IMG/VR virus record: IMGVR_UViG_3300025120_000017 | Span: 96,001 to 160,000 of that record | Length of the DNA: 64,000 nt | Source: a virus | Reading direction: 5' to 3' (one strand) | Shown here: piece after piece, positions 8,095-60,428 of the stretch | Numbering within the stretch: the stretch's first letter is position 1 | How the letters are laid out: every line of letters starts with the position of its first letter | Made by a program: the position numbers and the translations under genes | The notes under the pieces: model-generated | Database searches by the model: none | What the model was told of the DNA's origin: nothing | What the model saw: only the letters and a program-made list of their open reading frames with translations

Positions 8095-8475
8095 TCATGT
8101 AGTGTATGCAGAGATATATGGAATATCTTCTCTATAATGTGTTGATAATCTAGAATAACCATCAAGAACTTCATCATTAAAAATTACAATAGGATTATCC
8201 AATTCATCATCATGTGGAATTTCATCCCACTCTTCAGAATCTTCTCCATATCTATCTTCACCGCTTTTTATATATTCCTTAACATCTTTATCTTTTCTAA
8301 TTACATCTTTAACTTTAACTTTTTTTAATGTAAATGTCTTATTAGATTTAAGAATTTTTTCTATAAAAAAGTCAGGAACATCGCTACTATCTGGTGTGAT
8401 GTAAGTAATGTAATCAGCAATTTCTTGCGCTGATTTACTTTTAGCCTCATTTAAAAATTTCTTATAACTTTTCAT
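8095..8475 (-). CDS. ParB/Srx-like domain protein with capsid-targeting-like N-terminus
   Basis: N-terminus MKSYKKFLNE; PIVIFNDEVLDGYSRL resembles the ParB/Srx IIDGxHR motif. Confidence 0.6.
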   Translation of the reverse strand: MKSYKKFLNEAKSKSAQEIADYITYITPDSSDVPDFFIEKILKSNKTFTLKKVKVKDVIRKDKDVKEYIKSGEDRYGEDSEEWDEIPHDDELDNPIVIFNDEVLDGYSRLSTHYREDIPYISAYTT

Positions 8476-9242
8476 TATTGTCCGTTTGTTGTAAAGAAAA
8501 AACTAGGTGAGCTTAATCCTTTAATTTCTTCTTCTACTTTTTCAATCATAGTTACACCATTATCAAACCATTTAGAATAATCAATTTGTACATTTCCAGG
8601 AAGTTCCATTTGAAATGCTCCTAATATGTTTCCTAATTGTTTATAGGATTCTCCTAAAACATAATTATAAAATAGGTCTAGTCCATATAATGCTTCATAA
8701 GGAACTTTAATCATTACATCAAGTATAAGATCTGGGCAATTCTTAACGTCACCTTTTATAAATAGCCTATTATTTAATCGGTTGTATTCATATGTAAGTG
8801 GGTGTTTAGTAATATGATACATTAGATCATCCCAAGATGCATAAACCACATATGCAAGAACTGCATCACTATACATACCATCTTCAACAGCACCACCGCC
8901 ACCTAAGCCATAATTACCATAAACAAATTTATTTAAACTAAAGTCACTTGTTAAATCTGATGTTTTTGTAAACTGATTATTTTTAGTAAGACCATTAACT
9001 GAATATACGCATGATGGTAATGTAACTCCTCTATTCATTTTAAACAATGAATCTTTCATATACTGCTCGGATGGAATTAAAATATAAACATTATCAACAG
9101 CATCTTCATAATTTCTATAAAACCATTCAGCTGTATATTTTGATATTCTATCTATTTCAGTTAATGGAATTTTAAAAGGTATATTACATGATGCTGTTAG
9201 TGCATTTATAATATCTTGATTAAATTCTTCCTTACTTCTCAT
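8475..9242 (-). CDS. Neck / head-tail adaptor protein (T4 gp13-like)
   Basis: YEYNRLNNRLFI and YKQLGNILGAFQMELPGNVQID resemble gp13 C-terminal motifs. Confidence 0.75.
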   Translation of the reverse strand: MRSKEEFNQDIINALTASCNIPFKIPLTEIDRISKYTAEWFYRNYEDAVDNVYILIPSEQYMKDSLFKMNRGVTLPSCVYSVNGLTKNNQFTKTSDLTSDFSLNKFVYGNYGLGGGGAVEDGMYSDAVLAYVVYASWDDLMYHITKHPLTYEYNRLNNRLFIKGDVKNCPDLILDVMIKVPYEALYGLDLFYNYVLGESYKQLGNILGAFQMELPGNVQIDYSKWFDNGVTMIEKVEEEIKGLSSPSFFFTTNGQ

Positions 9243-9247
9243 ATTTA

Positions 9248-10552
9248 TTAATTATTTTGTGCTTCTTCTGCGTCTATTACCTCTACAGAATCATCTATCT
9301 CAGTATCTACATATTTACCTTCTCTAAAAATAGTGTTACCTTTAATTTGCATTCGGTCTAATGTAATAAATTTTCCATTTATATATCCATTTATGACTTT
9401 ACCGCTTTCATGGTGACCATCCTTAAGTCTAGTCTTCTTTAAATCGCATGAAATTGTATCAGTGTTTGTTAAGTCACATTTACTTGTTTTACTATCTTGT
9501 AATATTGCATTATCTATCACGCATTGTATAAACCTACAGTTATGAAAAATTACCCTATGTGAATCTATCACAGTATCCTTAAAACTAATATCAACAAACT
9601 CAAGCAATGATTCGTCTGAGTCATAATTTATTTTTCCTGCCATGCCATAAGGAATGTTTTCCATCTGTTGCATTAGTGGAAAAAATACTTGTATTATTTT
9701 ATGGAACTGTGATTTAACTGCTTCAGAATTATCATTACCATCAACAGATAACTTAAGTTTTTTAAATATGTTCTTAAAATTAAAATAATCTTTACTTGCT
9801 AAAAAAAGTTTATGCTTTTTATCTACTATAGATTTAAGAATCTTATTATCTTCTTTATCATATGGTTTATTATATGATAAAATTAATGAATCAATAAAAT
9901 AGTCCATTAACTCAATAGTTTCATCAGATCTAATTGCATATTTAGGTCCTCCTAAATATCTAAATTCTAAATAACCTTTTGATAATTTAGTAAAGTTTAT
10001 TCCATAGTACTTATTACTTGGAAATACATAATTTGTTTTATTAAATGTTAAATTATCAATGGCATAACTGCCATGTCTAGGGAAAATAGATTTAATGGTT
10101 TTGGCATATATATTATTTTTTCTATCTGGAAAATATTTATAAACCAAATCCTCATCAAAATCAATAATATATTTAAGAATGTCAATGTTTTGAATATACC
10201 TACCTTCTATATTAATGTTAATATGTATACCACATCTTTCATTAAGTGATATTTTTTTATCTTCTCTTATAAACTTAAGCATGTTTAGTAAGACAATTCT
10301 TGCTAATGGATATGATATAGGCCCAGTAACAACCTCAACTAGGCTTACGCCTCCTGAAAAATCTGGCTCCATTTTCCAATGGTCATTTGTTGGTATAAAG
10401 TCAGAATGATGTTCTTTTTCTAATTTAACATCAACTTTAAATATTTTTTTGATTTTTTTCTTAATTTCTCCTAAGTTATATTTAGGATCTCTTAAAAATT
10501 CAAACTCAAACCCTATTTGTGACTTAGTTTGTTTAATTTCGTTAGGAGTCAT
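9248..10552 (-). CDS. Putative amidoligase (COOH-NH2 ligase type 2) with C-terminal beta-helix-like repeats
   Basis: IGFEFEF, EVVTGP, CGIHINI, KYYGINF and LEFRY motifs; repetitive C-terminus (FHNCRFIQC...TISCDL). Confidence 0.8.
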   Translation of the reverse strand: MTPNEIKQTKSQIGFEFEFLRDPKYNLGEIKKKIKKIFKVDVKLEKEHHSDFIPTNDHWKMEPDFSGGVSLVEVVTGPISYPLARIVLLNMLKFIREDKKISLNERCGIHININIEGRYIQNIDILKYIIDFDEDLVYKYFPDRKNNIYAKTIKSIFPRHGSYAIDNLTFNKTNYVFPSNKYYGINFTKLSKGYLEFRYLGGPKYAIRSDETIELMDYFIDSLILSYNKPYDKEDNKILKSIVDKKHKLFLASKDYFNFKNIFKKLKLSVDGNDNSEAVKSQFHKIIQVFFPLMQQMENIPYGMAGKINYDSDESLLEFVDISFKDTVIDSHRVIFHNCRFIQCVIDNAILQDSKTSKCDLTNTDTISCDLKKTRLKDGHHESGKVINGYINGKFITLDRMQIKGNTIFREGKYVDTEIDDSVEVIDAEEAQNN

Positions 10553-10572
10553 CTATTACGCATATCTTTTAA

Positions 10573-10581
10573 TATTTAATA
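10573..10581 (-). promoter_or_regulatory. Putative late promoter TATTAAATA
   Basis: 20 nt upstream of the amidoligase ATG, immediately after a terminator. Confidence 0.65.
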
Positions 10582-10609
10582 AAAAAGACGCAGTATAATT
10601 ACTGCGTCT
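10581..10609 (-). terminator. Rho-independent terminator after the S1-like gene
   Basis: Perfect 10-bp stem agacgcagta/tactgcgtct with a 4-nt loop, followed by a T-run on the minus strand. Confidence 0.85.
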
Positions 10610-10645
10610 CTTTGAACATTTTTAAAACATGTCTTTTATATAAAA

Positions 10646-11770
10646 TTAAACAAATGATAAATCATATTTTCCATTATTAATGTTTATGATTTTGCATTCT
10701 ACTTTATCATTACGTTCTACCTCAACATTTTTCATTTTTGATATATGTACTAGACCACTTGTATTTTTATCAAATTTAACAAATGCACCGTATGAAGTAA
10801 GTTTAGTTACTCTACCTTTTACTATTTCGTTTTTCTTATATTTAACTTCCTTTAATGCTGTTAAATCCACTTCAAATCTTGATAGGATAATTCTCTTAGG
10901 ATTAATTATTTCTTTTAAGAAAAATTCAATCTCTACACCAGGCTTAACCTGACTATTGTCAAATAATTCCTTAAGGCCTTCATCAAATTCATCTTTATGA
11001 ATTAACCCTGTGAGAACTTCATTAAACTCAACAAATATACCAAAATGCGTAGTATCAGTTACTTTTCCAGTATACTTATCACCTACCACAAGATCTTGTA
11101 ATTTTATAGGAATTAAAGTTTTTAAATATTCTCGATGAGATACGATAAGAGTGTTTTTATACTTAGAATAACTATTATTATTTTTAACAGTCATTACTTT
11201 AATGGTTTCTCCAACAAGATCATTAAAATCAACTAATCTGTTTATTCCACCTAAGCTACCTGGCATAAATACATCAAGACCTAGAATATCAAGGTCATAT
11301 CCATTATTTGATAGCCTTAATACCTTAGCATCATATACTTTCTTAGAATCCCAATCTGTCATATCATCATATAGCTCTTTCCTGATCTTTCCAGTAATAG
11401 ATGCTTTTAAATACTCAGAACTTTCTTGATCTTGAGTGATAATTACTTCAATTTCCTGACCAATAGAAAAGTCGCTTGGATTTAGTTTATCCTTATCAAC
11501 AGACACGTATGCAAGTTCTCTATGCCCAACATCTAAAGATATTTCACCCTCAGTAATAGAAACAATTCTTCCTAGAACTACTTCGCCAGTGCATAATGAA
11601 TATTTTTTAACAGGAGTTACTCCATTAAAATAGTCTTCATATGATTTTGCTAAATCTTTTGCATAAGGCTCTGTTGATAGAATTTTTAAGCCTGATTTTG
11701 TTTGAAATGGTTGTTCAGCCGTGAACACGGAAATGTTTTTAGGATCCCCATAAACTTCTGTAGAGTTCAT
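10646..11770 (-). CDS. rpsA: Ribosomal protein S1 (bS1)-like protein, four S1 domains
   Basis: Four S1/OB repeats: GEVVLGRIV..; VYDAKV..VFMPGS; YTGKVTDTTHFGIFVEF..GLIH; VKGRVTKLTSYGAFV..GLVHIS. Confidence 0.85.
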   Translation of the reverse strand: MNSTEVYGDPKNISVFTAEQPFQTKSGLKILSTEPYAKDLAKSYEDYFNGVTPVKKYSLCTGEVVLGRIVSITEGEISLDVGHRELAYVSVDKDKLNPSDFSIGQEIEVIITQDQESSEYLKASITGKIRKELYDDMTDWDSKKVYDAKVLRLSNNGYDLDILGLDVFMPGSLGGINRLVDFNDLVGETIKVMTVKNNNSYSKYKNTLIVSHREYLKTLIPIKLQDLVVGDKYTGKVTDTTHFGIFVEFNEVLTGLIHKDEFDEGLKELFDNSQVKPGVEIEFFLKEIINPKRIILSRFEVDLTALKEVKYKKNEIVKGRVTKLTSYGAFVKFDKNTSGLVHISKMKNVEVERNDKVECKIININNGKYDLSFV

Positions 11771-11794
11771 ATTTTTTATTTTTAAGTGTATAAT

Positions 11795-12322
11795 TTATTT
11801 AATAGTAAATCCGATTACTGGTACTGAGATTTTAGGAGGTGGAGCTCCTGCCACTGCAAGACCATTATATAAAAATGATATAGTTTTTGCATGTCCGCTA
11901 AAGACATTAAATAATGCGCTTGTTATATTATCATAATCAGCGCTTTCTTCAAATAGAGGCAATGTAGGTGGTATTGGAGGTGTTGATATTGTGACTACTC
12001 CTGAATCAACTAAAGACATTCCAATTGTAGGAATAGCAGGTAGTTTAAGACTACCTGTTGCCCATGCAGCAATAAGAGATGCTTCTATTAAAGTAAATTG
12101 CATGTATGATCCTGGAATAGATTCAGATAATTTAATTTGTGCTACTATTGCACTTTTGATGAGTGTATAATTAATTCCACTCCATCTGTTCATATTTGAA
12201 TCTTTACCATTGCTGACAGCATCTTTATAATTATCAACAATAAGACCAGCAACATCTACTATGCTGCCAGAATTATTTAAGTTATCTTTAAATGATTGTT
12301 CTAAATCAGATTTTAGGCCCAC
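11795..12322 (-). CDS. Hypothetical protein (Pro-rich, likely virion-associated)
   Basis: GTG-start ORF in the structural region. Confidence 0.6.
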   Translation of the reverse strand: MGLKSDLEQSFKDNLNNSGSIVDVAGLIVDNYKDAVSNGKDSNMNRWSGINYTLIKSAIVAQIKLSESIPGSYMQFTLIEASLIAAWATGSLKLPAIPTIGMSLVDSGVVTISTPPIPPTLPLFEESADYDNITSALFNVFSGHAKTISFLYNGLAVAGAPPPKISVPVIGFTIK

Positions 12323-12325
12323 CGT

Positions 12326-13309
12326 TTATTTAAGTTTAGTTAATAAATCAGACCATAAATCAACTCTTGAAATATCAGGAAAGTTATATCCTGATTTTTT
12401 TCCTCTCATATCTTCAACACCGACTTCTTTTTCAAGATGCTTTATAACCATTTTAGTAATATCTTTATCGTTAAAACGTATAATAGGCTTTTCCATTATA
12501 GGTGAATAAGGACCTCCATACATATTATATTGACCTTCTTGAATAGCAAATATTTCTTTACCAAATTTTGTTTTACCTTTTACTTTAAAAGTGTTGCTGC
12601 TCCACTCTATATAGCCTTCTAATAGATCCAACTCAGCAGCAATTTGACTAGCTGCATCCTCTTCACTACTGTTATATTCTGCCCAAAGGGATCTATCAAT
12701 ATCATACTCTACGTTAATCTCTGCAGGAATCATTATTTTATCTCTTAAAACTCCTTCATTAACTGATTCCATTTTACCAGATGATAGGTCTTTAAGATCT
12801 TTATTAGCATTATCTATGTTTTTACTTTCTCTTTTGAATATTCCAATAAATTTCTTAACAACACTTTTTAAACCTTGTATCATTTTAGAAAGAATATTTT
12901 CATCGATACTTTCAGATTCATTTGTTCCTATTTCAAAAGAATGTCCTATATTGGTTATCTTTTTAGAAGCTGCTAAAGATTCTTCTAATATGTTTCTTGT
13001 TGCTGAATTAACTTTACCTAAAGCCATTTCAAACGCATTCTTATACGAAGCTGAACTTCTCTCATGTGCAAATCTTTTAATCTTTATCAAATAATCATCA
13101 GTTTCTGCTAGCTTTTCACCAGTTTCCTGCATTGAATCCAATAAAGGTGTTATTTGCTTACCATATTCACCAAATTGTTTTTTAGCTTCTTTAAGCTTTG
13201 CTGATAGTTGATTAATCTCTTCTTGTAAAAGATAAAAATCATCCATTGATGCAACAATTGAAGGGTCTTCTATTTTAGATTCTTTTATAAAATTTCGTAA
13301 ACTTTTCAT
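12326..13309 (-). CDS. Putative internal head (poly)protein with capsid-targeting-like N-terminus
   Basis: MKSLRNFIKE start; internal ESESIDE and MESVNE linkers; own late-type promoter. Confidence 0.6.
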   Translation of the reverse strand: MKSLRNFIKESKIEDPSIVASMDDFYLLQEEINQLSAKLKEAKKQFGEYGKQITPLLDSMQETGEKLAETDDYLIKIKRFAHERSSASYKNAFEMALGKVNSATRNILEESLAASKKITNIGHSFEIGTNESESIDENILSKMIQGLKSVVKKFIGIFKRESKNIDNANKDLKDLSSGKMESVNEGVLRDKIMIPAEINVEYDIDRSLWAEYNSSEEDAASQIAAELDLLEGYIEWSSNTFKVKGKTKFGKEIFAIQEGQYNMYGGPYSPIMEKPIIRFNDKDITKMVIKHLEKEVGVEDMRGKKSGYNFPDISRVDLWSDLLTKLK

Positions 13310-13328
13310 TTTAACTCATTTCTTTTTA

Positions 13329-13337
13329 TATTTAATC
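13329..13337 (-). promoter_or_regulatory. Putative late promoter GATTAAATA
   Basis: 19 nt upstream of the ATG at 13309. Confidence 0.55.
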
Positions 13338-14079
13338 ACTCAGGATCAATCGTAACCAATTTACTTTTAAAGTTTACAAAATCTGTTTTAAATTTGCTTG
13401 CTAATGCGGCCCAATTAGGCGATGAACCTATTGGACCACTAGGTCCTGTGGGTGTTGGTATTGCTGATATCTTAGCCAATTCAGTTATAAATGAATTAAG
13501 TAACTCTTCAAGAGTATCTCCTAATACTGCAGGCTCTGCAGATATATCTTCAGAACCAATGCTAATGCCATTATCGCTAATATGAATAGATTTTTGCGTC
13601 TTTCCATTAGATAATAAAATACTTTCATCTTCATTTTTAATTTGAATATATGTTAAGTTTTTTCTTATTATCAATCCTTGAGTTTCTGTATAAAAAATTT
13701 CAAGAGTCCTTTCTTCTCCTGGGGTACCTTCACCATCTTCTCCTAGTTTTTTATCATACATTAATGACCATACTTTAGGATAATCTTCACCGTATTCCGC
13801 TAAGAGGTCTTCAGAGTTTTTTATAGTTGTAAAATAAAATGGAACATAGTCATCATCATTCTCAAAAAACGTATTAATTATATCACCTACTTTAGGTATT
13901 ATACAAGTTCCTGTGCTTAGTTGATTATATGGAATAGCCCAAGGAATTACGCCCTCTTCAAGCTCATCATATTTAGAAAAGATTTTAATTTTAACTCTAC
14001 CTAATTGAAGCGGGTCATCTGTTCTAATAACTTCTCCAATCCAAATAGTACCAACAAGGACATCTTTAAAATACTTCAT
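13336..14079 (-). CDS. Baseplate spike/hub protein (gp5/VgrG OB-fold), no lysozyme domain
   Basis: WIGEV..TDDPLQLGRVKIKI..IPWAIP..IPKVGDIINTFF; C-terminal AEPAVLGDTL..PTPTGPSGP. Confidence 0.85.
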   Translation of the reverse strand: MKYFKDVLVGTIWIGEVIRTDDPLQLGRVKIKIFSKYDELEEGVIPWAIPYNQLSTGTCIIPKVGDIINTFFENDDDYVPFYFTTIKNSEDLLAEYGEDYPKVWSLMYDKKLGEDGEGTPGEERTLEIFYTETQGLIIRKNLTYIQIKNEDESILLSNGKTQKSIHISDNGISIGSEDISAEPAVLGDTLEELLNSFITELAKISAIPTPTGPSGPIGSSPNWAALASKFKTDFVNFKSKLVTIDPE

Positions 14080-15326
14080 TAATCATTTATATTTTGTATG
14101 AATGTAGGAGTTTCACCATCTAGTAAATTATTACCTAATTCATCAATCTTACTTCTTACACCAGCAGCACCTGCACTTACTATACTTCCTGCACTAAATC
14201 CATATACATTTCCTAAGAACAATGAACTAAGCCCAGCTGTTACTGCATTTGTTACTGAAGCTAATGCATCTTTTTTAAGGTCTTCTATAAACCCTTCTGT
14301 TGCATTTTTAAGTTCATCTGCTGCTTTTGCTTTTGCTTTTGCTATTTCATCTTTTAAGTTAAATGCATCGCTAGCACCGTCTACATTAGAAGATGTTTGA
14401 ATTCCACCTCCACCTAATAAGCTTTTATTAAATTCGCCTAGACCACCTCCGCTTAAATTTGTTATAATGTTATTTACATAATCTTTAACATACCAGAATT
14501 TTTTATCATCTGATTTATATAACATGCTAAGTATTTTAAATAGATTACTTTCTTCTACTAATTCATAATCAAATATTAAACTTTGTTGAGCTGCTTCATT
14601 ACCTCCATTATTAATTGAACTAAATAAATCTCCACCTGAGCCCATGTTAATTTCAACAAATGAAAAATCAAACATAAATTGGCTATACTCAAATTCACTT
14701 TCGCCAAAAAATGTTTTATTTACTTCTTCTGAGTTTGAATTAGGTTTAGGTTCAACGCCATCAATCTTATCACCTGCAAGAGATTGCATAAATGTTCTAT
14801 TATCATAAACCATCACGCCCATTTCAAAATGTCTTAGGTTATCTGTTAGTACTTCTCTCTTATGTACCCAATCATATGTAGCTTTTCTGTATAAATCAAC
14901 TAGTGCACTCATTCTTAAGTCTAAAGATTCTATGCATGCTATTGTAATTTGTCCTTTAATTTCAGGTTTTTCTATTTCAGCTCGTCTTTTCCAACATTCA
15001 TCTAATCCTGTTATTGATTGAAAGTACCACGGATATTCCTTATTAATCTTTTGTAGTAAATTAACAAAAGTATCAAGCATTTTAAACCTAGTAGTGTCTC
15101 CTATTTGATTTAAGTAATATCTAGCAGAATTTGAATTTGATGCTGCGCCTAATAATCCACCATGATTAGAATCATTAATTCCTCTAAAAAATAACTTAAA
15201 TCCTAAATATGTAGGGTCTTCAAACTGTGCTAAAGTATCTTTAGAATTAGTTCGAGTTTTAAACTTACTAAGATCTTCATTCTTTATATAATTAACGCCG
15301 TTTGTATTTTTACTCTCAATTCCCAT
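14079..15326 (-). CDS. Tail tube-like / baseplate tube initiator protein
   Basis: Located between gp27-like and gp5-like genes; tube-fold-like segments (ITIACIESLDLR, LIFDYE). Confidence 0.45.
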   Translation of the reverse strand: MGIESKNTNGVNYIKNEDLSKFKTRTNSKDTLAQFEDPTYLGFKLFFRGINDSNHGGLLGAASNSNSARYYLNQIGDTTRFKMLDTFVNLLQKINKEYPWYFQSITGLDECWKRRAEIEKPEIKGQITIACIESLDLRMSALVDLYRKATYDWVHKREVLTDNLRHFEMGVMVYDNRTFMQSLAGDKIDGVEPKPNSNSEEVNKTFFGESEFEYSQFMFDFSFVEINMGSGGDLFSSINNGGNEAAQQSLIFDYELVEESNLFKILSMLYKSDDKKFWYVKDYVNNIITNLSGGGLGEFNKSLLGGGGIQTSSNVDGASDAFNLKDEIAKAKAKAADELKNATEGFIEDLKKDALASVTNAVTAGLSSLFLGNVYGFSAGSIVSAGAAGVRSKIDELGNNLLDGETPTFIQNIND

Positions 15327-15330
15327 TTAA

Positions 15331-16791: not shown

Positions 16792-16793
16792 AT

Positions 16794-17300: not shown

Positions 17301-17315
17301 TATGTAAATATTTTT

Positions 17316-48399: not shown

Positions 48400-49524
48400 T
48401 TAATTTACTTTTATATAGATACTTGAGCTTTGTATTCTTGATGATGCATGGTTAAAAACCTTTTCAAAGATCTCATCAGATGTTTCTCCTTTATGTGTTT
48501 CGAGAATGTCTATAATTAATAGATTATAGTATTGCGAAAATAATCTATAAGGATCCTTATTTATTTTTGAATAGAACTTATCATATGACCAAGTCTTTTT
48601 ACAATATTTTATAAAAATATCATAAATCATATTAATAAGTTTGTCTATATCAGTTTTCGCTATGCTTGAAATTTCTTTATATCCAGGTAACCCACTTCTA
48701 TTAGTAAATTCTTCAATAAATGATCTGATTATTGTCCATCCTACTTTACCGCCTGCTGCGGAACTTCCCATTACTTCTAATGCATATGCAGTAAATTTAG
48801 TACTCTCAAAAGTACGTCCTTGCATTTTAACTGGAGCTTTTTCTTTACCAAACAAATACATATGCTTATTTCCAAAAAATGCATCATCATGGTCTACTTT
48901 ACCTTCTTTGTATGAAAATCCTGTATAATACATAGGTGTAATAAAATCATCTACATTAAAAAGTTGTAGCCTAGGTGATTTTATTGATTTAGGTTTCTTT
49001 AAACTTATTCCTATAAGCTCTTTACTTTCAAATTTATCTTTAATCCACTTATTATAACTTTCTATTGAATCAACCGGAACATGCTTAAGGTTTAATGTAG
49101 GTGAACTAACCCAAATATCGCCTGGATTCCACTTATCATCATTAAGTGCACCCATTCCACTATTTTTTGCGGCTATTCTAGCTTTCATATAAATCGCTTG
49201 CATGAACTTATCATTTCTATGATATATTCCATTAGGTATAGAATATCCTTCATTTAGTAACTTGTTTGCTATTGAAACAATGATGTTTTTCCAATCATCT
49301 GAAAGAGATGTAATTATAGGCTTTCTATTTTGTGATTTAACAAACATTTTAGCTTGTTTAATCATATCATCATTTATATCACTTACCGTTATTTTAGATT
49401 TTTTTATGTTTGATGCAATGGCACATGCATAACATTGAGCAAGCTCTGCTATTGTAGCAACATCTTTTCCTCCTCTTACGCTCTTTTTTTCTAATAATTG
49501 ATAGAATTCAGATAGACTTCTCAC
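48400..49524 (-). CDS. Restriction-endonuclease-like PD-(D/E)XK nuclease with capsid-targeting-like N-terminus
   Basis: N-terminus MRSLSEFYQLLE; TIAELAQ, KWNPGDIW and IGISLKK. Confidence 0.6.
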   Translation of the reverse strand: MRSLSEFYQLLEKKSVRGGKDVATIAELAQCYACAIASNIKKSKITVSDINDDMIKQAKMFVKSQNRKPIITSLSDDWKNIIVSIANKLLNEGYSIPNGIYHRNDKFMQAIYMKARIAAKNSGMGALNDDKWNPGDIWVSSPTLNLKHVPVDSIESYNKWIKDKFESKELIGISLKKPKSIKSPRLQLFNVDDFITPMYYTGFSYKEGKVDHDDAFFGNKHMYLFGKEKAPVKMQGRTFESTKFTAYALEVMGSSAAGGKVGWTIIRSFIEEFTNRSGLPGYKEISSIAKTDIDKLINMIYDIFIKYCKKTWSYDKFYSKINKDPYRLFSQYYNLLIIDILETHKGETSDEIFEKVFNHASSRIQSSSIYIKVN

Positions 49525-49542
49525 GATATAAATAATTTAATA

Positions 49543-49551
49543 TATTTAATC
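49543..49551 (-). promoter_or_regulatory. Putative late promoter GATTAAATA
   Basis: 18 nt upstream of the GTG at 49524. Confidence 0.55.
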
Positions 49552-49602
49552 AATTCTTAAACAAAATCTATAAAAACCTAATTAAATTAAAAAGATCTGA
49601 AT

Positions 49603-50751: not shown

Positions 50752-50758
50752 TAAATAA

Positions 50759-51965: not shown

Positions 51966-52171
51966 AAGCAAAACTAGAATTCGATTTAGAGGATTTAGAT
52001 GACGTAATGGCTCATTTAAGATGTGTTAAATCATTAGATATGGCAAAGACATTGTTTAAAATACAAGGTATAATAAAAGATAAGTGGGAATACAATGCAG
52101 TTGAAATACAAAGTAAAATAAGAGATGTATTTGAAGAGTATGATATTAACTTGGAAGATTTAATACAATGA
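51962..52171 (+). CDS. Conserved small phage protein (MKAKLEFDL.. family)
   Basis: Coupled ORF with a common phage N-terminal motif. Confidence 0.7.
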   Translation: MKAKLEFDLEDLDDVMAHLRCVKSLDMAKTLFKIQGIIKDKWEYNAVEIQSKIRDVFEEYDINLEDLIQ

Positions 52172-52206
52172 TTAATTAAAAATAAATACACATTAAATAA
52201 TAAATT

Positions 52207-52887
52207 ATGATACAAGAAGAAATCAAAGACACTTTTAACGAATCTGTTGAGTTAAGAGAAAGAATACAAAATGAACTAAGAGAGGATCAAAAAAATCTTA
52301 AGAAGTTAGTAGAAATCATCAGTAATGATAGCATTTCAGGTAATGAATTCAACAATGTAGTAAATATGTATCACTATAGAGAAGGCGGGTACCCAAGTCC
52401 TAATAGTAAACCAAGACACGTTGAATTTGTTAAGAAATTTGTTAGCTTATATAAAATACTTAATTTTCTTGAATTAGATGACTTCTTATGCATGGAATTA
52501 TATGGAGCCAGTGTTGTAATTCATGAACCTATTGAAGATTTTACAATAAGCGGAGATAGTCTTGAAACAATTAAGGAAAGAGGATATACTGCTACTACGT
52601 TTAAAGAATTTTTAACAGAAGCACTTCTTAGAGGAGATCATATACTAACATCTGTATGTAATTGTGCTGATATTATTAAGGAAAAGGCAAAAGAAATTGA
52701 AGAAACTGCAAATATTAAAAAGAAACATTATGGATCTGCTGTAATGACAGAAGTAAAAAGACGAAATGCAGGAGCAGAAGGAAATGTAAAAAGAGCTAAT
52801 AAAATTGAGGAATCTATTAATGAAGATTATGAAAGTTATGTACAATCATTAGGATTACTTGAAATAGATCAAGAAAATGGAAAATAG
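52207..52887 (+). CDS. Hypothetical acidic helical protein
   Basis: 226-aa ORF. Confidence 0.7.
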   Translation: MIQEEIKDTFNESVELRERIQNELREDQKNLKKLVEIISNDSISGNEFNNVVNMYHYREGGYPSPNSKPRHVEFVKKFVSLYKILNFLELDDFLCMELYGASVVIHEPIEDFTISGDSLETIKERGYTATTFKEFLTEALLRGDHILTSVCNCADIIKEKAKEIEETANIKKKHYGSAVMTEVKRRNAGAEGNVKRANKIEESINEDYESYVQSLGLLEIDQENGK

Positions 52888-53236
52888 AATAAAAATAGGA
52901 GATGTCTGGTATGTCAAAGAAGCTAAAGATGATATATCTATTAAAAAAGATTTTGCATATAGCCGAAGCATAACATATGAATGTGATAATTTTATGATTG
53001 AGGCACATGTACTAGAAGATAACGAAAAATTCACTATGCCAACTTTAAAATATGTGGATAAAAAATATCCTGAATGCTCTTGGGTTGCAAGCAACCCAGC
53101 ATATCTTATAGGAGTTGCAGAGCGAAATCCTAAATGGATGACTATTATAAATGCTGAGAGCCCTGAATTAATATCAGCAGTTAAAGAAATAATAGATGAA
53201 ATGAAAGATTCTGGGTGGCTATCAAATAATACTTAA
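52877..53236 (+). CDS. Hypothetical protein
   Basis: 119-aa ORF ending the plus-strand operon, convergent with 53233..53463. Confidence 0.65.
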   Translation: MENRIKIGDVWYVKEAKDDISIKKDFAYSRSITYECDNFMIEAHVLEDNEKFTMPTLKYVDKKYPECSWVASNPAYLIGVAERNPKWMTIINAESPELISAVKEIIDEMKDSGWLSNNT

Positions 53237-53463
53237 TTCTTACTCCCAAAGTTTTTAGGATATGGTCCACCGCCTTCAATGATGTCTAGCATATTAGATT
53301 CTTTATCTGAAATGTGGACCATTTTTTTATTACCTCCGCGAGCAATCCAAGTATTTACAAATTTCTTTGCGGACTTATTACTTATATTTTTAAGAAGACC
53401 TTTAAGATACTGAACAGATACATTTCTTTCTGATTCATTTAAAAACTCTTTATAGCTTTTCAT
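53233..53463 (-). CDS. Putative small internal head protein
   Basis: MKSYKEFLNE closely resembles the T4 internal-protein capsid-targeting sequence MKTYQEFIAE. Confidence 0.7.
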   Translation of the reverse strand: MKSYKEFLNESERNVSVQYLKGLLKNISNKSAKKFVNTWIARGGNKKMVHISDKESNMLDIIEGGGPYPKNFGSKN

Positions 53464-53752
53464 CTTTTATTTCTTTTTTTGATTTGATTTTATTGACAAC
53501 ATCTATAAATTTACCGCCAAACGTATATCCACAAAATAATAGCATAGCGCTATATAAACCTTGAGATATTAATCTAAGTATCTCTACATTTACATCATAT
53601 GATTTTGGGCTATATGCTTCAAGAGCCATAAGTACGTGAACTGTAAAATAAAAAAACACAGAGCAAAATGTATATACTCTTGCTTGTGAATATTTTTTAC
53701 TACCATCTTTTTTAGTTTCTTTAAGTATATCACTTAACATTGTAATTTTCAT
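53450..53752 (-). CDS. Two-TM membrane protein (holin-like)
   Basis: Two hydrophobic segments, KYSQARV motif, basic C-terminus. Confidence 0.55.
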   Translation of the reverse strand: MKITMLSDILKETKKDGSKKYSQARVYTFCSVFFYFTVHVLMALEAYSPKSYDVNVEILRLISQGLYSAMLLFCGYTFGGKFIDVVNKIKSKKEIKDEKL

Positions 53753-53767
53753 CTATATTTACTTATT

Positions 53768-54100
53768 TTATTCTTCGCTATCATAATCAGAATCTTCATC
53801 TTCTTCACTATCAGTGCCTTTATCAATATCTTTATTTATACGCTCTTTATCAGCATTTGCATCTTTTTTAATAATATCTTCAACATCACCTTCTTCTTCT
53901 GATGCTTTTGTATCTAATGCACTTCGTAAGCCACTCTTTTCATCCCAAGAGCAATCTATAAATCTCCTACCAAATTTGGATTTAGCCATTTTATCTAATT
54001 CTGCTTTTTCTTTAGGATCCATATCACTATATACTGATTTGCTGGTTGAAGCATTATAATACATAGAACCTGTCTTGTAATATTCTTTTAATGATTTCAT
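53768..54100 (-). CDS. Putative internal head protein with acidic tail
   Basis: MKSLKEYYK N-terminus. Confidence 0.6.
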   Translation of the reverse strand: MKSLKEYYKTGSMYYNASTSKSVYSDMDPKEKAELDKMAKSKFGRRFIDCSWDEKSGLRSALDTKASEEEGDVEDIIKKDANADKERINKDIDKGTDSEEDEDSDYDSEE

Positions 54101-54107
54101 TTAAGAT

Positions 54108-54635
54108 TTAAGCTTTTTTTAATTTTTTATCCTCACCTCTCTTAATAACTTCTCTTGCCATATCAGCATCTGCCTTACCCCATGTACCATCACCTTTAGT
54201 TAAAAATGCGTTAACTCTGGCTAATGCCCATTGTTCTTGACCTGCACCTTTTCTATGGCTTGAGTTCCATGCTGCTAATCCTCGCCTTGCAACTGCTCTT
54301 AATATACCAATATATACACCAGTTTCATCTGACTTATTTTTAAGAGCTTTTTCCATCTTTTGGCTTTTAAGAGGTCCTTCTGAAATCTGCTCTTTATTAT
54401 TCTTATCAGATTCTTTTTCTGCTTCATCAACATTATCACCATATAAATCATGGTAATTTTTTGTATGTTTACTCTTTTTTACCTTTCCTGATTTTCTAGC
54501 AGCTTCATCGCCTGGAGCATCTTTATATGCATCAGGATTACTATCTGATAATTCATCATTCTTTTTAAAAAAATCAGCTCTCTTTTTACTTACTGATTTT
54601 TTCTTTTCATTTAAAAATTCGTTAAGGCTTTTCAT
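54108..54635 (-). CDS. Putative internal head protein with DUF5824-like C-terminal domain
   Basis: Likely start MKSLNEFLNE (ATG 54635); RRGLAAWNSSHRKGAGQEQWALARVNAF. Confidence 0.7.
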   Translation of the reverse strand: MKSLNEFLNEKKKSVSKKRADFFKKNDELSDSNPDAYKDAPGDEAARKSGKVKKSKHTKNYHDLYGDNVDEAEKESDKNNKEQISEGPLKSQKMEKALKNKSDETGVYIGILRAVARRGLAAWNSSHRKGAGQEQWALARVNAFLTKGDGTWGKADADMAREVIKRGEDKKLKKA

Positions 54636-55275
54636 CTTCTTTATCATTTATTTCATAAAAGTATCCTTCGTCAGCAGCCCACTTATGGCCATTTTCACAA
54701 AAGAACTCGTGTGTACTAACTTTAAAGTCAGGTTTTCTTAATTTATTAGGTGTAAGAGATTGGTCATAAAATAAAACTCTGTTATTAGGCTGAGCAGCAA
54801 ATTGACCATTATCCATTTTTAGTATATTAAATGACTTATGCTCATTAGGTGTTTGTGATAAACTAACATTGAGTTCATTTGGATCTGAATGACAACTATC
54901 AATAGTAAAAAGATAATATCCTTTATGCCACTCTTTATCTTTCATATACACTTGGCAATCTATATTTTTTAATATAGTTTTTTCTATAACCGTTATGTTA
55001 TAACTAAAACAATCCCAGATTTGTAGAAAATCTAAAGGTAAAAAATCATTTTGATTAACGTCTTTATCCCAAACAAATGCAGATAAAGGTAACTTATCAT
55101 ATAGAGCACCATACTCAGTTAAATATGCTTCTATGTATAATGCTTTACCTAATATTGATTTGGCGCTTACCCAATAGCATGGTTCATATTCACCATGACC
55201 TTTTTCAAAATCATAAAGATATTCTTTACGTACATAACATTGTATTTGTGGTAAATTAGTTACTAAATAGCTCAT
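54622..55275 (-). CDS. Conserved T4-like phage hypothetical protein
   Basis: YVRKEYLYD..GHGE, GALYDKLPLSAF, GQFAAQPNNR. Confidence 0.8.
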   Translation of the reverse strand: MSYLVTNLPQIQCYVRKEYLYDFEKGHGEYEPCYWVSAKSILGKALYIEAYLTEYGALYDKLPLSAFVWDKDVNQNDFLPLDFLQIWDCFSYNITVIEKTILKNIDCQVYMKDKEWHKGYYLFTIDSCHSDPNELNVSLSQTPNEHKSFNILKMDNGQFAAQPNNRVLFYDQSLTPNKLRKPDFKVSTHEFFCENGHKWAADEGYFYEINDKEDEKP

Positions 55276-55299
55276 ATTAATTTATTGATTAAGGTTCTT

Positions 55300-56250
55300 T
55301 TATATTTTACTACCAACATCTGCATTATCATAATCTTTTAAAGTGATTTTCCAATTTCTAACTTGGCCTACAGGAACTCCAAGCTCTTTTGCCTTTTGTC
55401 TAACCTCCATCTTAAAGAGCTTAAATATTTTTTTAACCTGTGCTTCATATTTTCCATCAGGTCCAAATAATTCTTTTGTAGTAGCAGAGACAACTTTATT
55501 ACTATTTTTCATTCTTTTAGTTTGTCTTATACGTCTTTCAAAAAGAATTCCTTCATCTAGGTCAACAAACGCATGAACTGTATTATCATCAGGATCATCA
55601 GTTACTTTAACTTTAAATCCTCCAATAATAACTTCTTCACCATTAGAAAGCTTTTCAACATCTCCTAATGTTATTAACATTAGTGGCCAAAAAGTATCAC
55701 CAAGTTCTTTATGTTCATTAGTTGCCTCTTTCTTTATTAATTCTAAAAAATAATCTAATGCTCCTTTTCTTCTTTTATCTCTAATCTTTTTATATAAATC
55801 TTTAGCAAGCTTTATAGGATTTGCTGCCTTTATTAACATATCATGTAAATCTGCATGTACTGCCCAAAAGTATTGTTCATCTCTTGTAATGTTTTCAACG
55901 ATAGATGAATTGCTTCCTAGTGATTTTTTTATATTCGATAATGCTCTTTCTTTAATGTATTTTTGATTATCGTTTAATAAACTCTCAATAAGCTTTTCAC
56001 ATGCCTGCCTGAATTGCTCCATATGTTTCTTAGCTGCATTAATGTCATCTTCCTCAATTGCATCAATTGCCATCATAAGGTGCTCTGCTTCTTTATGATA
56101 ATTAACATCTACGAAGCTATTATATAATTTCTTAAGATCTTTATCTCCCATTGATATATCAGAGTTAGTTGCAATTTTAAGCATACCATCATAATCAAAG
56201 TTGCTTTTATACTTATCTCCTAATTTGTAAAATTCATATAATGATTTCAT
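55300..56250 (-). CDS. Putative internal head (poly)protein
   Basis: Likely start MKSLYEFYKL at ATG 56250; the ORF-track start at 56355 overlaps the upstream gene. Confidence 0.65.
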   Translation of the reverse strand: MKSLYEFYKLGDKYKSNFDYDGMLKIATNSDISMGDKDLKKLYNSFVDVNYHKEAEHLMMAIDAIEEDDINAAKKHMEQFRQACEKLIESLLNDNQKYIKERALSNIKKSLGSNSSIVENITRDEQYFWAVHADLHDMLIKAANPIKLAKDLYKKIRDKRRKGALDYFLELIKKEATNEHKELGDTFWPLMLITLGDVEKLSNGEEVIIGGFKVKVTDDPDDNTVHAFVDLDEGILFERRIRQTKRMKNSNKVVSATTKELFGPDGKYEAQVKKIFKLFKMEVRQKAKELGVPVGQVRNWKITLKDYDNADVGSKI

Positions 56251-56251
56251 A

Positions 56252-56623
56252 TTATGCGTCTTTATATTTGAATGTTCTAGGGTAAAAGCTTTTAGCTTGA
56301 TATTCTTTAAACTCACCTTCTTTATTAAAGACAGCATAACCGTCATTTGTAGCAACTAATACAGTTGGCTCAGTATGTAAATTAGAGAAAGCAAGATATT
56401 GTTCTGCTTTGGCTGCTGGTGCAAACATTTTTCGGTTAGCATCCATATATTTCTGTATTTTTTTAACATCAATATAGTCTTTAAGAAGTTTAGCATTCTT
56501 TGCTTTCATCTTTTTAACTTTAGCAGATGTGTTTGGTATTTCGATGATTTCCCACCCTTTAATGTCAACAGCATCTGGTGTAAACTTTTCATCTAATTTA
56601 TAAAATTTATATAATGATTTCAT
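56252..56623 (-). CDS. Putative internal head protein
   Basis: MKSLYKFYKLDE N-terminus. Confidence 0.65.
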   Translation of the reverse strand: MKSLYKFYKLDEKFTPDAVDIKGWEIIEIPNTSAKVKKMKAKNAKLLKDYIDVKKIQKYMDANRKMFAPAAKAEQYLAFSNLHTEPTVLVATNDGYAVFNKEGEFKEYQAKSFYPRTFKYKDA

Positions 56624-57483
56624 TATCTTGATATTTTTTTAATTTTAGAAGAAACTTGTTTAAAATGCTTATCAAATAATTTCTTATATTCTCTGATATA
56701 ATTAGTTTTATCTAATTTAGCTTCAAGGGATTCGATTGAAGTAATTATAGTTGTACCTTCTTCATCATCTTCAATCTCTTCTTCATCAGGATCAAAATCA
56801 GTTTCAGTTAAAGATTCTTCACGTCTTTTAGATTTTTCAGATTTATATTCGTTTTGCCTTTCTTTAGCAATATCTAAATCTTCTTTTATATCATCAAGAA
56901 TTCTACTCTCAGCTGAAAATAATGATTCAATTGCAGTTTCAACTATAGTTCTTTTATTTTCTTTTGTATTATCTAAAACATCTCTTATTACTTCATGATT
57001 ATAATTCTTATCCCAATCATCAAAAGATTCTTCATTAATTTTAGATTTAATCGCTTCAATAATATAATCATTTATGGTAGATGTCATTACTTCATCATGG
57101 TCATCAAAATACGACTCAATCTCCAACTCCAAGTTATCAATAACATCTTCAAGCGCTTCAGGGTAATTTTCCTCTTCAACCGTTTCTTTAATCTTTGGCG
57201 GCTTTGCATACTTCTTTCCTTCATTTATAGATTCATTTACATTCCAAGAAGCTGGTAATAAGTTAACCTTTCCCATTTCTTTAGCTCTTTTGATAACCCA
57301 TGCTTTTGCACGATCTTTATCTTTAGCTCTTCCGTAAGCTCTTATTGCATTTTTAAGATCTTCCTTATTTTCAATAGGAAATGAACCATCAGGTAATGCC
57401 ATTCCTTTATCAGCTAACTCTCTTCGCTGTGCTGTAGAAAACTTTCGCTCTATTATTTTATAATACTCAAAAAGAGATTTCAT
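56623..57483 (-). CDS. Putative internal head polyprotein (basic N-domain plus acidic domain)
   Basis: MKSLFEYYKIIE; PDGSFPI..DLKNAIRAYGR domain; VNESINE linker at about residue 88. Confidence 0.65.
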   Translation of the reverse strand: MKSLFEYYKIIERKFSTAQRRELADKGMALPDGSFPIENKEDLKNAIRAYGRAKDKDRAKAWVIKRAKEMGKVNLLPASWNVNESINEGKKYAKPPKIKETVEEENYPEALEDVIDNLELEIESYFDDHDEVMTSTINDYIIEAIKSKINEESFDDWDKNYNHEVIRDVLDNTKENKRTIVETAIESLFSAESRILDDIKEDLDIAKERQNEYKSEKSKRREESLTETDFDPDEEEIEDDEEGTTIITSIESLEAKLDKTNYIREYKKLFDKHFKQVSSKIKKISR

Positions 57484-57515
57484 AATTACATATATTTTTT
57501 CATATCAGCCATCTG

Positions 57516-58718
57516 CTAATTAGATTTATTAACTGGTTTCATACCTGTTCGGCGTTTAACATATTCCATTATTTCAGTATAAGAAACAGATTCAGGATAT
57601 TCAGGTTTTCCAGTAGTAGTTAAAGATTTCTTTTTGAAATCTGCAGTTATTGTAAAGCTTCCTGATGCCGGTGTAATTTTTAAAATATCACCGCTTACTG
57701 ATGCAGTAAATCTTTTAGGCTTTAAAAATGAACTAAAATGTTTAGATTCTTTATTTAAGAAATCTCCAAGAGCTGATGGAGATTTATCATGTTTAGATTC
57801 ATTAACCATTGATTCTTTTAATTTATCATAAAATCCAGAATATTCATCAGCGATGTCTTCACCATAATATTTATCCCATAGTTCAGCTATTTCACTTTTA
57901 GTAATACCTGCTTTATAATTTTTGCTGATGTCATCTATAAAAGATCCATACTCATTAGACATGTCTTCAGCATAAACTTCATCCCACACATTGAAGAGTT
58001 CTTTTATTTTATATTTCTTACCTTCATTAACCTTTGATTCATATGCACTGGTTCTTTTAAGTTTAACATTTTTAAAATATATAGGCAATAAATTATCATA
58101 GTCCCATACATCATAATCAATAATTTCACGCTTCTTTTTATTAATAACTAAGAATGCATTCTTTGTATCATCTCCGTAATCTTCATATCCTGAAACTAAA
58201 ATATGTTTAGGAGTTTCAGCCATTGGATTTTCTATTTGGCTATTATATGCATAAACAAATGTTCCTTTACGTTCATTTCCCCAGTATCTCTGTATTCCAG
58301 TGTCATATTCATCTCCGTCACCAAATTCTCTATTTAAGCCTTTTATATTATTATATCTTTTTTTGGCTTCATTAACATTTGATTCTTTGACTTTAGCATT
58401 TTTAAAATATATAGGCAATAATTTATCATAGCCCCAATGTTGATAATCAATGATATTACCTTTCTTTTTGTTAATGACTATATATACGTTCATTTCATCA
58501 TCCCCGCCTTGGTCAAATCCTGAAACTAAAATATGTTTAGGAGTTTCTGCTATAGGCTCTTCTATTGACCACTTAGACGCATAGATTCCACTATTACCTA
58601 GCCGTAATTTACCTGTGTATTCATCTTCATAGTCAACTTTTATGGTTTTGAGGCCTTCTATATCACTATATCTTTTTTTGGCTTCATTAATTAGTTTATG
58701 CTCGTCTAAACTTCTCAT
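57516..58718 (-). CDS. Putative internal head polyprotein, four modules
   Basis: MRSLDEHKLINE; linkers ESNVNE, ESKVNE, ESMVNE; modules 1 and 2 are paralogous. Confidence 0.7.
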   Translation of the reverse strand: MRSLDEHKLINEAKKRYSDIEGLKTIKVDYEDEYTGKLRLGNSGIYASKWSIEEPIAETPKHILVSGFDQGGDDEMNVYIVINKKKGNIIDYQHWGYDKLLPIYFKNAKVKESNVNEAKKRYNNIKGLNREFGDGDEYDTGIQRYWGNERKGTFVYAYNSQIENPMAETPKHILVSGYEDYGDDTKNAFLVINKKKREIIDYDVWDYDNLLPIYFKNVKLKRTSAYESKVNEGKKYKIKELFNVWDEVYAEDMSNEYGSFIDDISKNYKAGITKSEIAELWDKYYGEDIADEYSGFYDKLKESMVNESKHDKSPSALGDFLNKESKHFSSFLKPKRFTASVSGDILKITPASGSFTITADFKKKSLTTTGKPEYPESVSYTEIMEYVKRRTGMKPVNKSN

Positions 58719-58739
58719 TTTATTTGTTTTGTTTTGTTT

Positions 58740-59189
58740 TTAATATCTACCACGGTTAGGTCTAAATTTACCAACTTTTCTATCACCTTCTAAGTGTGCA
58801 ATTAATTCAGCCTCAGTTTCAAAATCAGTATATCCTAAAGGACTGGAATGATGTAAGATTGTGTATTGACCATTATCATCTATTCTTGCAAACCAATGTT
58901 CGTCACCAGCATTTATTGTTAATGTATCTCCTATTCTATCTTTATGTTTAGAGACCCGCTTACCTTTAGTTGCTTTACTATTTAAAATATTCTTCATATC
59001 CTTAGATTCTAATACCTTAATGTTTCCATTAATATATTGTCTAATATCATCTAATTTAGCAATAATTTCAAAAGATTTTGATTTATCTAATCCTGACTTT
59101 CTTAATACTTTCTCTACATTATCTATAGATTCATGCAAATCAAAGAATTTAGATTCATTAATTTCTTTATGTTCATTTAATGACTTCAT
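58740..59189 (-). CDS. Putative internal head protein
   Basis: MKSLNEHKEINE N-terminus; first gene after a late motif. Confidence 0.65.
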   Translation of the reverse strand: MKSLNEHKEINESKFFDLHESIDNVEKVLRKSGLDKSKSFEIIAKLDDIRQYINGNIKVLESKDMKNILNSKATKGKRVSKHKDRIGDTLTINAGDEHWFARIDDNGQYTILHHSSPLGYTDFETEAELIAHLEGDRKVGKFRPNRGRY

Positions 59190-59209
59190 TTTCTTTATCT
59201 ATTTTTTTG

Positions 59210-59218
59210 TATTTAATC
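59210..59218 (-). promoter_or_regulatory. Putative late promoter GATTAAATA heading the cargo-gene array
   Basis: 20 nt upstream of the ATG at 59189. Confidence 0.55.
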
Positions 59219-59800
59219 AATTTCTTCACTATCTGTAATATCATCATCTAAATCCTTTAACATATTTTTAGCATTAAGATATGTATTAGGTTTTACTTGA
59301 TTAACTTCGACATTTTGCGATTGCTGTTCAGAAAGTGGTAATTCTTGCTTAACTCTTTTAAAATCTTCTTGCATTGAAATTATATGTAGCTGAGTGTTCT
59401 TTAATAGTTCTATTATCGTGTTTTGGACACTGGTTGCAACTTCAAACATTCTTGGCTGCATATTTCCATTATCCATTTCATTAATGAGTTTGTTCATCAT
59501 ATGTTCACTCATTTTCAATTGCTGAAAAAGTGTCATTATGTTACTTGTTGCTACTGCGCTCTTTGCTTGTAAGAATTCATTCTTATTAATCATCTTTTCA
59601 TCAAAATATAGCTTAAGACAACTAATAACTGTTTTTTGTGCTTTCTTTCTTGCTTTATCTGTAATATCTCCAAGATTTAATGGTGCAACTGTAGTTACTT
59701 CAATATCAGGCAACTCATTATCATTACTTGCAAGACTTTGGTTTACTAAATCGTCTAAACTATCTTTAAGTTCTTTACCTAAGTCGTTTTTATTACTCAT
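59213..59800 (-). CDS. terS: Terminase small subunit (T4 gp16-like)
   Basis: Helical protein with QPRMFEVATSV, resembling the gp16 PR.(F/Y/M)EV motif; motif AATTAAATA at 59816-59824 upstream. Confidence 0.6.
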   Translation of the reverse strand: MSNKNDLGKELKDSLDDLVNQSLASNDNELPDIEVTTVAPLNLGDITDKARKKAQKTVISCLKLYFDEKMINKNEFLQAKSAVATSNIMTLFQQLKMSEHMMNKLINEMDNGNMQPRMFEVATSVQNTIIELLKNTQLHIISMQEDFKRVKQELPLSEQQSQNVEVNQVKPNTYLNAKNMLKDLDDDITDSEEID

Positions 59801-59823
59801 AATTTAATATTTGTATATTTAAT

Positions 59824-59860
59824 TTAATTCATATCTAGAGATATATTAGATATGTATTAA
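59824..59860 (-). terminator. Hairpin / possible terminator after the WYL gene
   Basis: catatcta/tagatatg stem extended by ttaat/attaa; no clear U-tract. Confidence 0.4.
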
Positions 59861-59876
59861 AGTACTTTTATTCATG

Positions 59877-60428
59877 TTATAATAATTCTATCAATCCTAG
59901 CTTAAACGCCTCATTAACAAGCTTTTCTTGATTATCTCTAATATCTTTAATATCAGCAGCTGTGATAATTCCGCCTTTCATTGCACTATCGCTTTCATTA
60001 TAATTAGATTCAGCAGTTCTAAAGAAACTTCCTGTAAAACTAAGTTCTTCAATATTAGCGGTTTTAAATAATCGCCAAACTTTTTTTGTATTTTTACCTA
60101 ATGACTTACTATTTCCTTTTAAATGAAATGCTCTTAGTAGGTTTTCATCATCTGCGTTTTTACCAAGAACCATAGGTTGAATAGTTCTTTTGGTTTTTAC
60201 ACCATCTTTTTCATAAGTCATTTCAAGAATCATTCCCCATTGTATTGCATCATATAATATCTGTTGATTATATCCAAAGTTTTTACCTACAGGCCAATCT
60301 TTAAAAACTCTATGATTAGTGTTTTTTGGTTTAAATCTAGGTACAAGTATTTTATCACCTTCATTAGTTTCATATACCTCAAACGCTTCAAGTAATAAAT
60401 ACTCTTTATATTCTTTTAAGCTTTTCAT
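59877..60428 (-). CDS. WYL-domain protein with capsid-targeting-like N-terminus
   Basis: MKSLKEYKEYLLLE; LEMTY..KRTIQPMVLG..LLRAF..WRLFKTANI. Confidence 0.7.
   Translation of the reverse strand: MKSLKEYKEYLLLEAFEVYETNEGDKILVPRFKPKNTNHRVFKDWPVGKNFGYNQQILYDAIQWGMILEMTYEKDGVKTKRTIQPMVLGKNADDENLLRAFHLKGNSKSLGKNTKKVWRLFKTANIEELSFTGSFFRTAESNYNESDSAMKGGIITAADIKDIRDNQEKLVNEAFKLGLIELL

Follow-up and report, generated by a model that had tools for sequence, protein, structure and literature searches.

T4 capsid-targeting sequences and a leader in a marine phage

The internal proteins of bacteriophage T4 (IPI, IPII and IPIII) begin with a capsid-targeting sequence (CTS), an N-terminal leader of 10-19 residues that ends in [LI]-x-E (PMC9026906, PMC3012670). 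In the sequences that we checked, T4 ipII and ipIII start with MKTYQEFIAE, while ipI starts with MKTFKEF and has ITE at residues 17-19; an initial annotation of the DNA described below had given the same decapeptide to all three proteins, which is correct for IPII and IPIII but not for IPI, which is cut after ITE, at residue 19. According to the passages of PMC9026906 on the suppressor genetics of Mullaney and Black, residues 4 and 7 of the T4 CTS matter most for targeting and residues 8 and 10 for processing, and an Asp at position 10 blocks cutting while targeting is kept. The parts of the literature that treat the polymorphic internal-protein loci of T-even phages describe diverse proteins with only the CTS in common, and read them as an arms-race repertoire (Repoila et al., 1994, as cited in PMC9026906; Rao and Black, 2010, PMC3012670). 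Here we report on a 64,000-nucleotide stretch of DNA (the window; bases 96,001-160,000 of the 171,834-bp IMG/VR record IMGVR_UViG_3300025120_000017), in which twelve minus-strand genes with unrelated bodies start with a peptide resembling the T4 CTS. The source is a distant, uncultured, oceanic T4-like phage, whose nearest cultured relatives, gene by gene, are pelagiphage HTVC008M, methylophage Melnitz and T4-like cyanophages.

All twelve open reading frames (ORFs) to which the initial annotation had ascribed the common N-terminal peptide were found at the start positions that it claimed, and the list is complete for the window, with no further member missed. Ten of the twelve leaders end in [LI]-x-E, as had been noted; the exceptions are those starting at 54100 (…YYKTGS) and 56250 (…YKLGD). 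Over the 172-kb record the leader is found on ~29 of ~211 genes, or ~12% of the coding capacity, 16 of them with a strict form of 10 residues and 13 with a looser form, either of 12-14 residues or a variant. The T4-type capsid-targeting interpretation gains sequence-level support from the conserved leader positions, the presence of S77 protease and gp23-type capsid genes, the L-N-E tripeptide, virion-borne relatives and the restriction of the leader to gene starts. We consider it likely that this 10-14-residue N-terminus is a T4-type capsid-targeting propeptide, which would direct its protein into the head and be cleaved there, and we place injection into the host at a lower level of confidence. 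The phage would thus probably carry an unusually large protein cargo in its head.

The leader is highly specific to gene starts. Our regular expression, M-[KR]-x-[LYI]-x-x-[FYHI]…[LIV]-x-E with the terminal [LIV]-x-E required, matches 23 of the 1,312 ATG codons in the entire record that are followed by 40 or more open codons, and all 23 lie no more than 35 codons from the 5' end of an ORF; 23 of the 29 tagged genes satisfy the terminal [LIV]-x-E. With a position-specific scoring matrix the 16 strict members score at least 10.4 bits, compared with 2.2 for the best start outside the 29. None of the 184 untagged genes starts with MKS[LY], where ~0.5 would be expected from the position frequencies, and chance does not account for the leader pattern. 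The claim that the bodies are unrelated also stands: an all-against-all BLASTP comparison of the 29 proteins without their first 15 residues gave a single related pair, which lies outside the window and has a 66-residue module in common.

The residues that are held constant are those that matter in T4. Position 4 is L, Y or I and position 7 is F, Y, I or H in all 29 leaders; L, I or Y predominates at position 8, N at position 9 and E at position 10, and positions 5 and 6 vary. The constant positions 4 and 7 and the conserved positions 8 and 10 are thus the ones required in the T4 genetics. Different synonymous codons encode the conserved residues (AGT, AGC, TCA and TCT for Ser3; TTA, CTT and CTA for Leu4; the codons for Lys, Glu, Asn and Phe vary too), which indicates that selection acts on the peptide.

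The leader extends to related phages. A set of 80 IMG/VR loci (1.03 Mb) was reached through an alignment of homologues of the DUF5824 protein encoded at 54108-54635; searches for related loci with the S77 protease and with the neck protein as query returned no close relatives, and a search of viral contigs for the exact degenerate leader pattern gave no match. Within the 80 loci the leader is present at 161 of 1,466 ORF starts, as against 7 of 7,146 internal Met residues, and tagged genes form arrays of up to 14 in 20 kb. The homologues of the DUF5824 cargo mostly carry a 10-residue MKS[LFY]xxF[LI]xE or a 13-residue MKH[IV]xTFExF[LIV]xE leader, the terminal Glu of which is at least 90% conserved and is followed by a length-variable stretch. 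In one protein of this family, P0026, the DUF5824 domain directly follows the leader and an acidic 'DDDDP-AYK-PGD' module closes the protein; the other members have these modules in a different order, which shows that modules are shuffled within tagged proteins.

The number of tagged genes varies greatly among phages, with ~6 in a complete 270-kb relative, and the strict DNA pattern has 13 real hits in this record, 3 in T4, 2 in cyanophage S-SCSM1 and none in HTVC008M. These lower counts elsewhere justify the description of the repertoire as expanded, with ~29 tagged genes in about two thirds of a genome compared with 3 in T4. The set also differs from the T4 internal proteins in its leader lengths of 10, 12 and 14 residues, in the presence of polyproteins or enzymes among the bodies, and in its marine host. 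It resembles them in that MKSYKEFLNE, the leader closest to the T4 CTS, is identical to MKTYQEFIAE at 6 of 10 residues and agrees with it at the key positions 4, 7, 8 and 10, in that a gp21-family protease is encoded, and in that the mature parts are mutually unrelated. The bodies of T4 IPI-III showed no homology to the 29 tagged bodies by BLASTP (best E 0.31); as judged from their sequences, the tagged genes appear to be internal-protein-like in their working and not members of the IPI, IPII or IPIII families. As in the T-even internal-protein loci, diverse proteins have only a CTS-type start in common, but those loci hold few genes, at one place, in close enterobacterial relatives of T4, while here the genes are both dispersed and arrayed in a distant marine lineage. 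Diverse internal proteins with a common CTS are already established for the T-even phages, and what we describe is a much enlarged variant; in the limited body of literature searched, we found no account of CTS-like leaders in marine T4-like phages.

Prohead protease, cleavage-type sites and virion relatives

The head module of the phage lies outside the window and includes a portal-like gene, a 544-aa protein with a Peptidase_S77 domain at its N-terminus and a gp23-family capsid protein. The S77 protein (the product of C1:39345-40979) matches PF03420 (47 bits, E 1.6e-13); its S77 domain matches T4 gp21 (BLASTP E 9e-13) and keeps the His and Ser motifs GEL[DN]HP (here GELDHP) and SSR (here SSRAAG). 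This domain is followed by VNE161↓S (arrows mark putative cleavage points) and by a coiled-coil, repeat-rich, scaffold-like region of ~380 residues with five tandem WSEHVTE↓T repeats; from its sequence the gene looks like a gp21-gp22 fusion, the product of which is predicted to be broken down into short fragments. In three related contigs, too, the S77 match falls within a long open frame (577-831 aa), and an S77 protease is encoded in four of the five large contigs of the related set. The adjoining gene encodes the capsid protein, which matches PF07068 (gp23; 124 bits, E 4e-37) and aligns with gp23 over its full length, with SSLNE51↓N near the T4 cleavage position at LTE65. The L-N-E at this predicted maturation site is the same L-N-E that closes the commonest leader. 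Two tagged genes lie at distances of 2.0 and 2.6 kb upstream of the portal gene, from which three further genes separate them.

Cleavage-type sites also occur inside the tagged proteins. The tagged set contains 13 internal VNE tripeptides, compared with 1.4±1.1 by shuffling and with 0.28 per 1,000 aa in other proteins, and they typically stand in the context ES-x-VNE↓[SGA]. The 400-aa product of 57516-58718 (minus strand; leader MRSLDEHKLINE) has VNE sites that part modules 13-117, 118-232, 233-307 and 308-400. The leader of this protein ends LINE↓AKKRY and its second module starts NVNE↓AKKRY; the presence of NE↓AKKRY at both places marks the leader junction and the internal junction as equivalent. 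When all 1.84 billion representatives were searched by HMMER with this product, 84 hits were obtained, and their matches form separate blocks with boundaries close to residues 232 and 307. Of 60 starts of homologous modules in these 84 proteins, 29 fall exactly after [LIVM]-x-E and 14 more lie no further than a few residues away, and module junctions such as ES-x-V-[NT]-E↓AKKYKFKD are found at many positions in proteins of 71-1,111 residues. The AlphaFold2 model gives modules 233-300 and 311-395 a predicted local distance difference test score (pLDDT) above 90, with dips in confidence at both linkers; Foldseek found no credible fold match for the polyprotein (E ≥0.03). On these features of sequence, several tagged proteins resemble polyproteins in which a new module starts right after [LIV]-x-E.

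Two described groups of proteins bear comparison with this arrangement. In phiKZ, 201phi2-1 and SPN3US a gp21-related protease cuts many head proteins, the ejection and inner-body proteins, after the Glu of a three-residue motif, and the DNA is accompanied on ejection by a large protein cargo (PMC5694885); the motifs of those proteins are S/A/G-x-E or A-x-E, and their propeptides are mostly longer than 100 residues, with no short common N-terminal tag. Polyvalent proteins of phages and conjugative elements (Iyer et al., 2017, PMC5512222) are also multi-module and are predicted to travel with the DNA and to be split into separate activities; they have their own peptidase domains, in place of which the tagged proteins have prohead-protease-type linkers and a CTS-like tag.

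Evidence from purified virions comes from the cyanophage relatives. The tagged 374-aa protein encoded at 48400-49524 (minus strand) is homologous to ORF90 of S-SCSM1 (E 3e-18), which sits among consecutive genes annotated "virion protein" (ORFs 89-93), a label that denotes detection by mass spectrometry in CsCl-purified particles (PMC9602691). The neighbouring ORF91, an NMNAT/cytidylyltransferase, is an enzyme present in purified virions that starts with MKSFLQFLKE, and its P-SSM7 homologue starts with MKKFSAFLTE. Its presence in particles puzzled the authors of that study, and NMNAT-like proteins recur across cyanophage virion proteomes (PMC9602691), a recurrence that a targeting leader would explain; those authors drew no link between virion and leader. 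The T4-like cyanophages differ from the present phage in having only one or two leader-bearing genes per genome, and in the other 129 kb of S-SCSM1 a search with the strict DNA pattern found no further leader-bearing gene start. A family of ~411 aa with the motif KNTHxxHxED often bears the leader in uncultured relatives (IMG/VR loci L022, L024, L029 and L030), and its untagged homologues HTVC008M gp127 and P-SSM7 ORF190 have VKWDG, a ligase-type KxDG motif.

The identity of the 374-aa protein can be narrowed only tentatively. Its AlphaFold2 model has an overall pLDDT of 85 with a disordered leader (residues 1-19 below 50), and an invariant KWNPxDxW…SLK motif in its family recalls PD-(D/E)xK nucleases. 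The ESM-atlas gives a hint of a restriction-endonuclease-like protein (score 0.87), which is a lead only, because the comparisons with solved structures gave no credible fold match (Foldseek E ≥0.2; VIA-align Z ≤3.8). Distant homologues of this protein are ~100 residues longer at the N-terminus, and many share an [LIVM]-x-E at about residue 103; the alignment of S-SCSM1 ORF90 to the 374-aa protein begins near that site (residue 98).

Tagged genes of the window and upstream elements

The record has a GC content of 29.8% and ~211 ORFs, 180 of them on the minus strand, and the window contains baseplate, tail-fibre, neck, terminase, ribonucleotide-reductase and exonuclease genes. Most tagged bodies belong to no Pfam or PHROG family. 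Among the cargo, an R2K-clade ATP-grasp, a GNAT acetyltransferase, DUF5824 and DUF3008 can be recognised; of these domains only DUF5824 occurs in the window.

Four of the twelve tagged genes, all of which are on the minus strand, lie outside the eight-gene block. The 126-aa gene at 8095-8475 (MKSYKKFLNE) has no Pfam or PHROG family and begins at the stop codon of an adaptor-like gene. The 327-aa gene at 12326-13309 (MKSLRNFIKE) has an internal MESVNE↓G at residue 185 and lies downstream of a baseplate-hub-like gene. The gene for the 374-aa protein has a GTG start at 49524 and the leader MRSLSEFYQLLE; two orthologues (77% and 71% identical) use ATG at this place and have the leaders MKSLREFYQINE and MKGLFEYYSLLE. 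The 183-aa gene at 59877-60428 has the leader MKSLKEYKEYLLLE.

The other eight form a co-directional cluster from 59189 down to 53233. Its first gene encodes 149 aa (58740-59189; MKSLNEHKEINE) and is followed by the polyprotein gene and by genes for 286 aa (56623-57483; MKSLFEYYKIIE, with internal NVNE↓S and SINE↓G), 123 aa (56252-56623; MKSLYKFYKLDE) and 316 aa (55300-56250). The leader of the last of these, MKSLYEFYKLGD, ends L-G-D, with Asp in place of the expected Glu. Then come the 175-aa DUF5824 gene (54108-54635; MKSLNEFLNE), a 110-aa gene whose leader, MKSLKEYYK, lacks the distal [LIV]-x-E (53768-54100), and the 76-aa gene with MKSYKEFLNE (53233-53463). An untagged 217-aa gene at 54622-55275 lies inside the block and is highly conserved (phrog_3704, annotated 'ferredoxin', E 3e-94), and a 100-aa hydrophobic ORF at 53450-53752 also breaks it up.

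The initial annotation placed this cluster behind a late-type motif and gave two dispersed genes copies of their own, and both placements are borne out. A single ATTAAATA stands at the head of the block (59210-59217, minus strand), and further minus-strand copies lie at 13329-13336, 20 nt upstream of the gene that starts at 13309, and at 49543-49550, upstream of the gene that starts at 49524. The motif, often extended to ATTAAATATAAAAAG, has 67 copies, 30 of which lie 5-43 nt ahead of a gene start (29 starts in all), and the genes behind it include neck, baseplate and very large structural-looking genes as well as 7 tagged genes; most tagged genes are without their own copy. ATTAAATA is of the late-promoter type (the T4 motif is TATAAATA), and the genes behind it may be late genes. 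A second conserved element, AAAATAAAAA-N(4-8)-TTTAAR-ATG, is distinct from ATTAAATA and precedes many tagged genes; outside the window it lies upstream of the starts 64744, 65774, 66515, 45903, 45309 and 67842. Its role may be that of a junction, or of an initiation element, by which cassettes are more easily exchanged.

Delivery, assembly and other readings of the leader

Taken together with the T4 system, these features suggest a model for the working of the tag. Late in infection, the tagged proteins would bind to the assembling prohead core through their leaders, mainly by positions 4 and 7 with their hydrophobic or aromatic side chains, and would be enclosed by the gp23-type shell. The S77 prohead protease of the gp21 family would then cut behind the leader-terminal [LIV]-x-E and, in several proteins, also at internal ES-x-V-N-E linkers, freeing separate modules. 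We propose that the mature products are retained in the DNA-filled head and that they probably exit with the DNA at infection; their ejection into the host is probable by analogy with T4.

The serious alternative is a role in assembly instead of delivery. The tag would still target the prohead, but the products would be core, scaffold or DNA-condensing parts, many of them degraded and expelled in the manner of T4 gp22, gp67 and gp68. The core proteins of T4 are likewise processed by gp21 (PMC5694885), many tagged proteins are small, charged and without enzymatic domains, and two tagged genes are close upstream of the portal gene. A structural function is poorly matched by 29 unrelated, fast-evolving bodies, by the enzyme domains (R2K ATP-grasp and GNAT) among them and by folded modules that are conserved across many phages, and we regard this alternative as unlikely, while keeping it in view.

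A reading in which the conserved start acts in expression or recombination, as a translation-initiation region combined with a cassette junction, and the peptide itself has no role is considerably less probable. Both AAAATAAAAA-N(4-8)-TTTAAR-ATG and ATTAAATA are conserved DNA upstream of many tagged genes, and the occurrence of homologues with different leader types suggests swapping at the tag; such cassette exchange is compatible with targeting and is no substitute for it. A role purely at the level of RNA or DNA is contradicted by the synonymous variation behind conserved amino acids and by the recurrence of the NE↓AKK junction inside proteins, far from start codons, and the conservation of the leader-terminal Glu over a diverged family speaks against it as well. 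Least probable of all is a leader recognised by a modifying enzyme, as in ribosomally synthesised and post-translationally modified peptides, a reading that lacks its partner here, since no radical-SAM gene was found in the 172-kb record, and that has to contend with a leader resembling the T4 CTS residue for residue and an encoded cognate protease.

The capsid-targeting interpretation itself has several observations to set against it. For this phage, packaging is a prediction from sequence, and the record is ~67% complete by CheckV. The terminal Glu is absent from two of the twelve window leaders (54100 and 56250). The gp21-type motif [LIV]-x-E is loose and common, at 16-21 per 1,000 aa in all proteins, and the enrichment of VNE is absent when the tagged ORFs of all 80 related loci are taken together; VNE-linker enrichment is a trait of particular families. 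S-SCSM1 ORF30 (MKTFKQFMSE) has the leader but no virion-protein annotation in its record. T4 gp61.1 (NC_000866 18966-19130; 54 aa, hypothetical), which is encoded next to the primase gene in the early replication region, starts with MKTFKEFIKE. The leader pattern is therefore an imperfect predictor, given that this protein also carries a CTS-like start. To our knowledge, gp61.1 has not been described as packaged.

On the capsid-targeting interpretation, the leader and the [LIV]-x-E linkers may together constitute an address code, tunable by lineage, that loads a cargo of dozens of exchangeable protein species, among them enzymes and polyproteins that are cut in the head, for delivery with the DNA; we put this wider proposal forward tentatively, at slightly less than an even chance. 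Were it true, these phages would have a fast-evolving, virion-borne effector arsenal comparable to the effector repertoires of secretion systems, and packaged proteins would be predictable from sequence across ocean viromes. Should the tag function as it does in T4, a simple sequence rule would tell which proteins abundant ocean phages carry in their particles, and the natural leader variants would be on offer for loading T4-like heads with foreign proteins. The rule picks about one gene in seven of this genome, almost all of unknown function, and, as packaged proteins act first in infection, their products would be natural candidates for host takeover and counter-defence.

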